The notes beneath the pieces are model-generated. The model saw only the letters and a list, made by a program, of their open reading frames with translations. It was not told the origin of the DNA and did no database searches. A program made the position numbers and the translations under genes. A DNA stretch of 64,000 nt from the sequence record PQ338057.1, one strand, 5' to 3'. Origin of the DNA: a phage. Within the stretch, counting starts at the first letter, position 1. The number at the start of each line of letters is the position of its first letter. Below are positions 18,689-21,218 of the stretch, in pieces.

Positions 18689-18708
18689 CGAAGACCATTA
18701 GGTCTTCG
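18689..18708. terminator. hairpin cgaagacc-atta-ggtcttcg between convergent Q and the retron RT
   Basis: Perfect 8-bp inverted repeat overlapping the RT stop codon. Confidence 0.4.
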
Positions 18709-19660
18709 CTTTATTTAAAGGGTTCTTTCCATATTTTTTTTCTAATTTGCTAATATAAGTTATTAATCTCCTATGGCTTTTTGAATCCACACTTAAAATA
18801 AATGACAACCATCCCCTAACGTGTTCTATCTCAGAAGACTTACCGCAAAATATATGATGTATCTTTGCTCTAATTTCTTTATATTTTTCTCTACCTATCC
18901 CAACTTTCTCTTGTGAAATAACTAAACCTGTAACTTTCCTCTGACTACGAGGCCCACTAATACAAGTTTTTTTTGAGTTAATAACCAATCCTTCACTTGG
19001 GATTATAGAAAATAAAAAATCACGTGCTTTAACAACCTTTTTCATAGACTGTGCAGATAAGGTGAGATCATCGGCATATCTCGTATATATCAAGCCCCGA
19101 CTACCTGCATAACCCTGAATACGATAATCAAGTTTAGAACATATTAGATTAGCTAATTTAGGTGATGATGGAGCACCTTGTGGTAGCAGATTTTTATAAC
19201 AACATATTTTTGTCAAAACTGAAGATATTAGTCGATTATAACCAAGAGAATGGAACACTCCAAAAACTTTGTTAGCAGTTAAACTTGGGAAAAAATCCTC
19301 CAAATCAATATTCAGTATAAAGTTTGCCCCAATATGCGGGGTAGCATTATTCAAAATAGATTGGTGCTTTTCAAATCCAATAGAAAAAGGAGATGACGAC
19401 AGTTTATCTAAAATGTTACGTAGAACCCATCCTTGTAAGGCTTTAAGTTCTCGAGAAGGTTGGTAAATGGTTCTCATTCTCTTCTCTGGGCCTTTCTTTT
19501 CTACAGTGTAGATCCTATAGCGAAAATCAGCTGTATAGATTAACAACCGAAGTGTTTCAACAGATATGCGAGTCGCCTTAGACATGTCATGCAAATTGTT
19601 CATGACAGGTAGGCCGAGATTTCTCAATCTAAAAGTGTTCAAATATTCAGCGGATTTCAT
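18698..19660 (-). CDS. ret: retron reverse transcriptase (Retron-Eco1 / Ec86 RT), 320 aa
   Basis: YADD active-site motif (RYADDLTLS); sequence MKSAEYLNTFRLRNLGLPVMNNLHDMSKATRISVETLRLL recalled as the Ec86 RT; immediately downstream of msr-msd. Confidence 0.95.
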   Translation of the reverse strand: MKSAEYLNTFRLRNLGLPVMNNLHDMSKATRISVETLRLLIYTADFRYRIYTVEKKGPEKRMRTIYQPSRELKALQGWVLRNILDKLSSSPFSIGFEKHQSILNNATPHIGANFILNIDLEDFFPSLTANKVFGVFHSLGYNRLISSVLTKICCYKNLLPQGAPSSPKLANLICSKLDYRIQGYAGSRGLIYTRYADDLTLSAQSMKKVVKARDFLFSIIPSEGLVINSKKTCISGPRSQRKVTGLVISQEKVGIGREKYKEIRAKIHHIFCGKSSEIEHVRGWLSFILSVDSKSHRRLITYISKLEKKYGKNPLNKAKT

Positions 19661-19666
19661 GAAAGT

Positions 19667-19841
19667 TGCGCACCCTTACGTCAGAAAAAACGGGTTTCCT
19701 GGTTGGCTCGGAGAGCATCAGGCGATGCTCTCCGTTCCAACAAGGAAAACAGACAGTAACTCAGATTCAATGCAGGATGCCGAAACAACATCCAGAGGTT
19801 GACCTTAATGATAAACCTCTCGCTAAGGGTGCGCATACGGA
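19667..19841 (-). ncRNA. msr-msd: retron msr-msd non-coding RNA (Ec86): msr about 19749-19841, msd about 19681-19766, a1/a2 inverted repeats at 19824-19835 and 19667-19678
   Basis: Minus strand reads ATGCGCACCCTTAGCGAGAGGTTTATCATTAAGGTCAACC...; plus strand 19681-19766 reads TCAGAAAAAACGGGTTTCCTGGTTGGCTCGGAGAGCATCAGGCGATGCTCTCC..., the msDNA-Ec86 sequence as recalled. Confidence 0.9.
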
Positions 19842-20746
19842 ATCTTATCATAGTTAAATGTTGATTTTCTACGGTTTTCAAAATTCATAATCTCAAGCCG
19901 CAATCGGTCAAGTGTCTTTCTATCAAAGACGCTCCTAACATAGCTAGCCCCCAAAGCAGTGACCTGATAACCATCAGTCATTTGAAGTATTTTTCGTTCA
20001 TTTATTAGACGAGAAACAACGGATCTAACAATAATTTTAGATAAAACATCATCTTGCTTTATCGCTTTAAAAGCTAGTTCACACAGTGTGCGGTAGTTGA
20101 CACTATCCAGTAAATAGATACAAGGCAATAGAAACCGCTCTGCGTATAATATATTTCCAATATCTTTTGATACTTTATTTTCTTTCCTAACCTTCTTAAT
20201 AGATGCCATTAATTTTTTATATAATCGTAATTTTCTGGCAACATCAATAGATGAATCACACATTTCTTTTAGTTCATTTGAACTACAACGCAAAACAGAT
20301 TTTGAATTAAACTTACGCAACAGGCGAACAGGACCATAGTTAATAAAGCTACGTTTTGATTTAAATTTTGCATCTTGAATGCAAATCAACTTTCTCCTTA
20401 AGTTTTCATTATTAGAGAACGCACCAAGCTCTGTGAAAGACCCCGGACTTTCAGGAAATAAAATTATTACATCGACAGCTTCAGCCAGAATATTTTCTAA
20501 ACTTAAAAGGCTATGCTGCCCTTGACCAGCCAAAAGATCATCAAATAGATCTTCTGGATAAAATATATCAACATCACTGAACTTTGCTAAAAATTGTGAT
20601 AATTGATGACGCCAAGATTGATGATTAGCAACGTCACCACCACATAGAAAAATGGTTATTTTAATATTAGCTCCTCGATAGAAGCCTTTCTTTGTGAGAT
20701 GTCCTATAAGCTGTTGTTGCTGCTCATCGGTAAATTTTTTATTCAT
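19823..20746 (-). CDS. retron effector, nucleoside 2-deoxyribosyltransferase-like (NDT-like) protein, 307 aa
   Basis: Upstream of msr-msd on the same strand, stop codon inside the msr a1 region; Rossmann-like motifs (IFLCGGD, ILFPESPGSFTELG); AT-rich; NDT assignment from recall of Retron-Eco1, not verified. Confidence 0.75.
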   Translation of the reverse strand: MNKKFTDEQQQQLIGHLTKKGFYRGANIKITIFLCGGDVANHQSWRHQLSQFLAKFSDVDIFYPEDLFDDLLAGQGQHSLLSLENILAEAVDVIILFPESPGSFTELGAFSNNENLRRKLICIQDAKFKSKRSFINYGPVRLLRKFNSKSVLRCSSNELKEMCDSSIDVARKLRLYKKLMASIKKVRKENKVSKDIGNILYAERFLLPCIYLLDSVNYRTLCELAFKAIKQDDVLSKIIVRSVVSRLINERKILQMTDGYQVTALGASYVRSVFDRKTLDRLRLEIMNFENRRKSTFNYDKIPYAHP

Positions 20747-21218
20747 AATCTCCCCGCTTTTTTTTCTACTTTATACATCAAGTTATGAATAGATCCAATC
20801 TCCATACCACATGGCGCGCGCTCGTATCCCCGCCACGCCTGCCCGCTTTATGCAGTGGTTTTCATGCACATGCATAACATGAGCAAAAGCCCGCCAGTTC
20901 TGGCGGATCTGAGCAAAGACGATCCTCAATCGATCATGCGATTTCATGCAGCATAGTCATGCACTGTCAAGGAAGTGAAAATCCGTATCTGAATGGCCAC
21001 TTGAAAAACGGATCATACGGGTTTACAAAGATGAATGTTCGCTGTGAACGGGAAGCGGAAGTTAACTTTCAGATAACATAATCCATATGCACGAGAACCT
21101 CTAAAATAGAATGGGACACCTAAGCGGGGTACTTACAACGATTCTTTCCATATTCACAGTTAACACTCTGTTTGGCGTATTTTTATTCAAATAGCAAACA
21201 CCAATAAAAGGAGTTTCC

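Follow-up and report, generated by a model that had tools for sequence, protein, structure and literature searches.

A likely internal promoter in the last effector codons of retron Ec86, where the effector gene overlaps the msr

Introduction

In classical retron operons, such as those of Ec67, Ec73 and Mx162, a promoter located directly upstream of the msr drives expression of msr, msd and ret. Here we compare this arrangement with that of retron Ec86 (Retron-Eco1), a type II-A3 retron found on the minus strand of a P2-like prophage in sequence record PQ338057.1, of which we analysed a stretch of 64,000 nucleotides (nt), referred to below as the window. The components of Ec86 are ordered as effector, then non-coding RNA (ncRNA), then reverse transcriptase (RT); our main concern is the end of the effector gene, where the protein-coding frame runs into the ncRNA and where a second promoter probably resides. 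Ec86 would share with the classical operon a -10 element placed a few bases before the a1 repeat, and one transcript carrying both the ncRNA and the RT gene. It differs in having an effector gene upstream, the frame of which appears to have grown over the promoter and a1; the promoter would thus be intragenic and nested in a longer transcription unit.

Type II-A1 retrons (Retron-Sen2/St85 and Retron-Eco3/Ec73) carry a homologous NDT-like effector, which bears the NCBI name 'retron St85 family effector', and RTs of the same broad type; in the same classification Eco1 belongs to type II-A3, 'Nuc_deoxy+Retron' (Mestre 2020, PMC7736814). The order described in the literature for type II-A1 is msr-msd - effector - RT, and as the effector is downstream of the ncRNA, there is neither an effector/msr overlap nor a need for an intragenic promoter. 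The gene order of Ec86 is shared by retrons with an intergenic msr (L038 from Serratia, L041 from Dickeya, L049 from Photobacterium and L037 from Enterobacter; 33-38% effector identity), which also have TAnnnT 6-9 nt before a1. In contrast to Ec86, their effector genes stop 44-53 nt before the branch G, so that the -10 element and a1 lie outside the coding sequence.

In toxin-first toxin-antitoxin operons, the neutralising partner can be expressed on its own from a second promoter, located within the toxin gene or behind it. Ec86 might be regarded as analogous to such operons, with the difference that the 'antitoxin' would be the RT together with the reverse-transcribed ncRNA, and that the promoter would lie over the last codons of the toxin.

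The retron studied here is already known. It is the same element as retron Ec86 of E. coli B and BL21, with no sequence difference, and its a1/a2 repeats, UAGC motif and msd stem are as in the Retron-Eco1 literature. Multicopy single-stranded DNA (msDNA) production and anti-phage activity have been described for the identical sequence, and the overlap of the effector gene with the msr is implicit in what has been published. As Ec86 is the main genome-editing retron and a model anti-phage system, knowledge of its native expression is of practical use. In the literature that we searched, we found no statement that the effector stop is the priming UAG, that the protein tail may be an imprint of the RNA, or that a clade-wide candidate extended -10 element is located in the effector gene; these are modest additions.

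The effector gene of Ec86 ends within the msr

The features concerned are as follows.
20746..19823, minus strand: retron Ec86 effector gene, NDT-like N-glycosidase plus DNA-binding domain, 307 aa (open reading frame (ORF) list)
19836..19667, minus strand: retron ncRNA (msr-msd), from its 5' A to the end of a2, 170 nt (from the fold)
19835..19824, minus strand: a1 inverted repeat, TGCGCACCCTTA (inverted-repeat search)
19678..19667, minus strand: a2 inverted repeat, TAAGGGTGCGCA, with 6 nt between its end and the start codon of the RT gene
19825..19823, minus strand: effector stop TAG, matching the UAG of the UAGC priming motif, with G19823 as the putative priming (branching) guanosine (from the sequence)

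An earlier note on this DNA, prepared from the sequence alone, had claimed that the effector stop codon (19823-19825) is part of the msr 5' region and that a1 (19824-19835) overlaps the last effector codons. Both claims are borne out by direct reading and by the ORF list. On the minus strand the effector gene ends with ...CCG TAT GCG CAC CCT TAG, the TAG being at 19825..19823, and a1 forms a perfect 12-nt pair with a2 (19667-19678). The a1 repeat spans effector codons 304-307, that is, the last 10 coding bases and the TA of the stop codon. It is followed by TTAGCG (19826..19821), which places TAGC at 19825..19822. The priming guanosine of Retron-Eco1 is known to lie directly 3' of a1, in a UAGC motif that is intolerant of substitution (PMC11754653). 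Since the TAGC at 19825..19822 corresponds to this priming motif, the effector stop codon is at the same time the priming UAG, and G19823 would be the point at which the 2'-5' branch is formed.

A candidate extended -10 promoter is conserved in the last effector codons

19850..19842, minus strand: candidate extended -10 element TGaTAAGAT (TG at 19850..19849, hexamer TAAGAT at 19847..19842), in effector codons 299-302 (TAT GAT AAG ATT)
19871..19866, minus strand: weak -35-like hexamer TAGAAA, matching TTGACA at 4/6 positions, 18 nt upstream of the -10 hexamer

At 19850..19842 we found TG, one further base and TAnnnT, which is the arrangement of a sigma-70 extended -10 element. Effector homologues were gathered from a protein search, species-representative genomes, viral contigs and metagenomes, and 40 non-redundant Ec86-type loci were compared, with effector identity ranging from 100% down to about 38%. 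A smaller set comprised 25 non-redundant effector genes with 38-86% protein identity to Ec86, plus Ec86 itself. In nearly all relatives the RT gene is on the same strand, 150-250 nt after the effector.

The motif TGnTAnnnT emerges both with the branch G as common anchor and in the codon alignment. All of the 25 effector genes (25/25) have it at one and the same codon-aligned position, the next best occurrence anywhere in the gene being 3/25. Of the 40 loci, 38 have it, with 17-22 nt between its end and the branch G; the background expectation is 0.064 per 45-nt window, and the two loci devoid of it retain the hexamer TAATTT. This conservation is seen at the nucleotide level. The third base is invariant in only 2 of 296 codon columns, namely codons 299 and 300, where it provides the T of the TG dinucleotide and the T with which the hexamer opens. 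When all 40 sequences are considered, only columns 290, 299 and 300 reach 95% third-base identity. Residue 300 may be D, A, G or V, and its codon is always GnT. Where arginine occupies column 301, its codon is AGR (AGA or AGG, R being a purine) in 15 of 15 cases, which supplies A-11, compared with 52% AGR in the rest of the genes. The fixed bases are T-15, G-14, T-12, A-11 and T-7, and positions -10 to -8 vary. It is these five bases that sigma-70 contacts in extended -10 promoters.

Codon 290 (GAA/CAA) has an identical third base in 39 of 40 relatives; this codon lies within TTGAAA, 28 nt upstream of the -10 hexamer. We considered this TTGAAA (19881..19876) as a -35 element and rejected it due to its distance of 28 nt from the hexamer.

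The position of the motif relative to the RNA is also conserved. In Ec86 the -10 hexamer ends 5 nt before the 5' A of the msr, A19836 being the sixth and G19834 the eighth base after it. We take A19836 to be the ncRNA start used in the Ec86 literature, and this start fits the position of the candidate -10 element. The distance from the end of the hexamer to the beginning of the a1/a2 helix is 5-8 nt in 20 of 23 loci. Clades with an intergenic msr (L038, L041, L174, L176, L049, L037 and L167) have TAnnnT 6-9 nt before a1, and therefore the element belongs to the msr rather than to the coding sequence. For retrons of this type, a practical rule might thus be to look for the ncRNA 5' end some 6-8 nt past TGnTAnnnT.

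The earlier note had proposed a different -10 hexamer, TATGAT, at 19849-19854. These positions read ACTATG, and TATGAT is found 2 nt away, at 19852..19847; its distance of about 10 nt was given correctly, as it ends 10 nt before the A (19836) of ATGCGC. We rejected this hexamer as the -10 element. It overlaps TGnTAnnnT, being 5 nt out of register, and its end is 10 nt from the 5' end of the RNA, too far for a typical sigma-70 start. In its register TAnnnT is conserved in 22 of 25 genes, compared with 25 of 25 in the register of TAAGAT.

It might be assumed that TGnTAnnnT does not act as a DNA promoter at all, being instead an RNA-level signal on a long transcript, for example a site of RNase cleavage or of ribosome pausing, or an element bound by the RT. 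The motif is indeed A/U-rich and adjoins the a1 stem on its 5' side, a place at which cleavage by a processing enzyme is conceivable. However, ncRNA variant libraries make ncRNA from heterologous promoters (PMC11754653). The pattern of fixed and free positions fits sigma-70 recognition, which also argues against a signal of this kind. We know of no RNase consensus that would fit the pattern of fixed and free positions in TGnTAnnnT. The variant-library constructs presumably lack the native upstream sequence and yet yield msDNA, so the motif would not be needed as RNA. We regard an RNA-level role as highly improbable. A conserved internal promoter in the last effector codons is likely, judging from this sequence pattern, and it would be a small addition to the description of Ec86.

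The C-terminal tail of the effector appears to be dictated by the RNA

The effector frame would run across the internal promoter and a1 up to the UAG of the UAGC priming site, and therefore the last residues, Ala-His-Pro, would be dictated by the RNA. One could argue for the opposite, namely that conservation at the 3' end (the AHP tail and the Y-D-K-I codons) reflects a protein function of the effector C-terminus, the msr overlap being an incidental result of tight packing. Consistent with this, Y299 is nearly invariant, and C-termini ending in AHP, VHP or AHL recur in the protein alignment down to 45% identity. The relatives, however, speak against such a function. The effector ends on the branch-site UAG in 20 of the 40 loci, but its stop codon is located 13-19 nt earlier in 15/40, which are thus devoid of the tail, and 5 or 38 nt later in a further 5/40. 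The a1 core GCGCACCYTTAGCGAG is kept whatever the frame in which it is read: as A-H-P-stop in most loci and as R-T-F-S-E in L018, L012, L013 and L015. In L087 the tail has Val in place of Ala, and this change in a1 is compensated by one in a2 (TGTGCACCCTTA with TAAGGGTGCACA). Residue 300, as described above, varies under a codon that stays GnT. Because of these frame changes, early stops and extensions, together with the compensatory change, the AHP tail appears to be imposed by the RNA and dispensable, and selection on it at the protein level was rejected on the same grounds of frame changes, truncations and extensions. We find it very hard to credit that protein function accounts for the conserved 3' end.

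The earlier note had also claimed that the coupling constrains both the evolution of the effector C-terminus and the expression of the ncRNA. In our reading the constraint is one-directional, from the RNA and DNA signals, which are fixed, to the protein tail, which is plastic. The conserved AHP ending would therefore be an imprint of the overlapping RNA, which calls for caution when such conservation is read from protein alignments alone.

Three loci outside the 40, L012, L013 and L015 (from Vibrio and Pseudoalteromonas), have the effector stop 59 nt later, with the ORF reaching 19 codons into the msr. Their effectors end with ...RTFSELFFEKS.IQLGSDSLSFN*, and the overlap extends ~60 nt past the branch G. 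In a distant Elusimicrobia locus (L048), an unrelated a1 of 16 nt again ends in the TA of a TAG stop.

A large Bacteroidota-type sister clade (L019-L045 and many of L126-L175) has effectors ending with ...LKNRKKKLKV*, with the stop 4-7 nt before a1. Its branch site is TTTTTAGAC and its a1, AAGTTCTTTTTA, is highly conserved. When a TAnnTTTG-type box was sought in this clade, a TAAATTTG-like string was found ~34 nt before a1; it is not invariant, and it is located within a conserved E-I-L-N-L-K peptide.

Ec86 is probably organised as two nested transcription units

20798..20770, minus strand: candidate effector promoter, TTGGAT (20798..20793), 17-nt spacer, TATAAA (20775..20770) (inferred)

The organisation that we consider probable consists of two nested transcription units, with an upstream promoter for the effector and an intragenic extended -10 promoter for the ncRNA and RT. 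Under this scheme, the upstream promoter (about 20798..20770) would give rise to effector mRNA and would be able to read through into msr-msd-RT, and the second, a sigma-70 extended -10 promoter (TGaTAAGAT, 19850..19842, within effector codons 299-302), would direct initiation at about A19836-G19834, at the beginning of the a1 stem. The resulting transcript would carry the ncRNA and the RT gene and be devoid of the effector. The likely benefit, as we infer, is that production of the neutralising RT-msDNA partner would not depend on that of the toxic effector and could at least equal it in amount.

The alternative is a single operon promoter upstream of the effector, with the msr 5' end generated only by processing of a long effector-msr-msd-RT transcript and with a non-functional -10-like motif. 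Upstream of the effector there is a conserved candidate promoter, TTGGA and TGTATAAAG being retained in an alignment of relatives at 72-100% identity, and no terminator-like site was found in a scan of the region between the effector and the msr/RT. Due to this upstream candidate and the lack of a terminator-like site in the scan, long read-through transcripts are likely to be made as well. On the other hand, processing does not account for the fact that precisely the bases contacted by sigma-70 (TG-T-A---T) are invariant, even at synonymous third positions and in the use of AGR codons for arginine, nor for the recurrence of this hexamer, equally spaced from a1, in clades with an intergenic msr. 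We consider the single-promoter explanation unlikely. The earlier note had stated that the ncRNA promoter must sit inside the effector 3' coding region. The comparative evidence favours an intragenic promoter, but 'must' is too strong, because the upstream candidate promoter and the lack of a terminator-like site leave read-through plus processing logically possible.

Several observations weigh against an internal promoter and have to be set beside the conservation. Mestre 2020 (PMC7736814) describes the retron and effector as an operon under one promoter, citing transcriptional work for it. A two-hexamer promoter scan called no promoter beside the msr: there is no -35 element better than 4/6, and TAGAAA with the -10 hexamer scores 8/12, under the threshold. 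The scan would miss an internal promoter of this kind because its -35 element is weak. In the -35 region, the codons CGT AGA AAn are common among relatives and not invariant. The candidate effector promoter also scores 8/12, and as both candidates are below the cut-off, the scan neither supports nor excludes either of them. Moreover, the motif overlaps a moderately conserved peptide, Y-D-K/R-I/V, hence part of its conservation is at the protein level, and as the sequences are phylogenetically related, the raw counts overstate their independence. Finally, we found no transcription start of the msr in the Ec86 structure preprint, Millman 2020, Mestre 2020, the main paper on the BL21(DE3) transcriptome (in which the retron is not mentioned), the T4/E. 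coli NAD-cap dRNA-seq preprint or other searches.

A further-reaching version of the nested organisation is possible, if doubtful. The ncRNA and RT would be made mainly from the internal promoter, and ribosomes finishing the effector on the long mRNA would, as its stop codon is the priming UAG, sit on a1 and block a1/a2 pairing. Only internally started transcripts would then become msDNA templates, and the overlap would serve to separate the toxin mRNA from the antitoxin template and to set their ratio.

If the internal promoter is real, the ncRNA and RT would lose their natural promoter on deletion or truncation of the effector 3' end, clones described as having the 'native promoter' would contain two promoters, and promoter strengths, not translation alone, would determine how much neutralising RT-msDNA is made relative to toxic effector. 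These considerations may be useful in cloning or truncating native Ec86 cassettes; the definition of the retron is unchanged.

Protein and RNA components identify the locus as a type II-A3 retron

19660..18698, minus strand: retron Ec86 reverse transcriptase, 320 aa (ORF list)
19695..19748, minus strand: msd stem-loop, arms 19695-19719 and 19724-19748, 25 nt, 88% complementary
about 19765..19680, minus strand: msd template (derived from the 86-nt msDNA length)

The effector matches PADLOC NDT_II-A (E = 2.7e-94) and, over its full length (residues 1-307 of 307, E = 1.2e-203), PDB 7v9x_C, entitled 'Retron Ec86 putative ribosyltransferase/DNA-binding protein'. Its top database cluster (P0001) shows 100% identity. 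It is thus an NDT-like effector with a C-terminal DNA-binding domain, as expected of type II-A3. The RT matches PADLOC RT_II-A (E = 7.1e-128) and Pfam RVT_1 (E = 2.9e-25), and its ORF contains the Y[ACV]DD and VTG motifs of a retron-type RT. Both ORFs lie within 18698-20746 on the minus strand, separated by a gap of 162 nt, and the order effector - ncRNA - RT on one strand is the same in related loci.

The RNA 19836..19667 folds into the canonical retron structure, in which a1 and a2 form the closing stem, the msr two hairpins and the msd one long hairpin, as expected for the ncRNA of a type II-A3 retron. Its minimum free energy is -80.6 kcal/mol (z = -8.67), and 0 of 200 shuffled sequences fold as well. 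The a1/a2 pairs co-vary in relatives, as seen for TGTGCACCCTTA/TAAGGGTGCACA in L087 and GAGCCGTGCCAATTTA/TAAATTGGCACGGCTC in L048. The msd arms hold a perfect 10-nt core, GGAGAGCATC/GATGCTCTCC, so the internal msd palindrome of the earlier note is real and forms part of a 25-nt stem which is also present in the fold; likewise, its assignment of the element as a retron msr/msd agrees with the fold, the repeats and the protein identities. The extent of the msd template given above is based on the length of Ec86 msDNA, which we take to be 86 nt. Rfam searches at gathering and permissive thresholds gave no retron ncRNA match, only chance miRNA-like matches on the msd hairpin.

The RT start codon ATG (19660..19658) is located 6 nt past a2, and the gap between a2 and RT is 2-8 nt in relatives. 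As this gap is so short, any ribosome-binding site of the RT gene must lie inside a2, and a1/a2 pairing and RT translation may therefore compete on the same RNA. In the RefSeq (PGAP) annotation of E. coli C (L001), the retron RT is an 888-nt gene (6099-6986) starting from an internal Met, whereas the full ORF of 320 aa begins directly after a2; no ncRNA feature is annotated there between the effector and RT genes.

Surroundings of the retron cassette

A block of 2351 bp shows 100% identity to E. coli chromosomes in which it is annotated as 'retron St85 family effector protein / RNA-directed DNA polymerase', and most of it is carried by 48 of 5426 complete genomes. In the window the retron block adjoins the portal and terminase genes of a P2-like prophage. 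The stop codons of the portal gene (18680) and the RT gene (18698) converge with a gap of 17 nt, at which there is a GC-rich hairpin, CGAAGACCATTAGGTCTTCG (18689-18708), that looks like a shared bidirectional terminator.

Upstream of the effector, GGCGTGGCGGGGATACGAG is found at 20821-20839 on the minus strand, in a block (about 20815-20860) that is nearly invariant in P2-like prophage relatives (L083-L096). This sequence resembles the cohesive ends (cos, 19 nt) of phages P2 and 186; if it is cos, the retron cassette would be flanked by cos and by the portal gene. A terminator-like hairpin, TCCGCCAGAACTGGCGGG followed by CTTTTGCTC (20890-20907, minus strand), is found upstream of the cos-like block; it is conserved in relatives and would insulate the effector promoter from upstream transcription. 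Elsewhere in the window, a full-length RybB small RNA gene was found at 5877-5955 on the plus strand (Rfam RF00110, 105 bits, E = 1.3e-20), and it serves as a chromosomal marker for the position of the prophage-bearing window.

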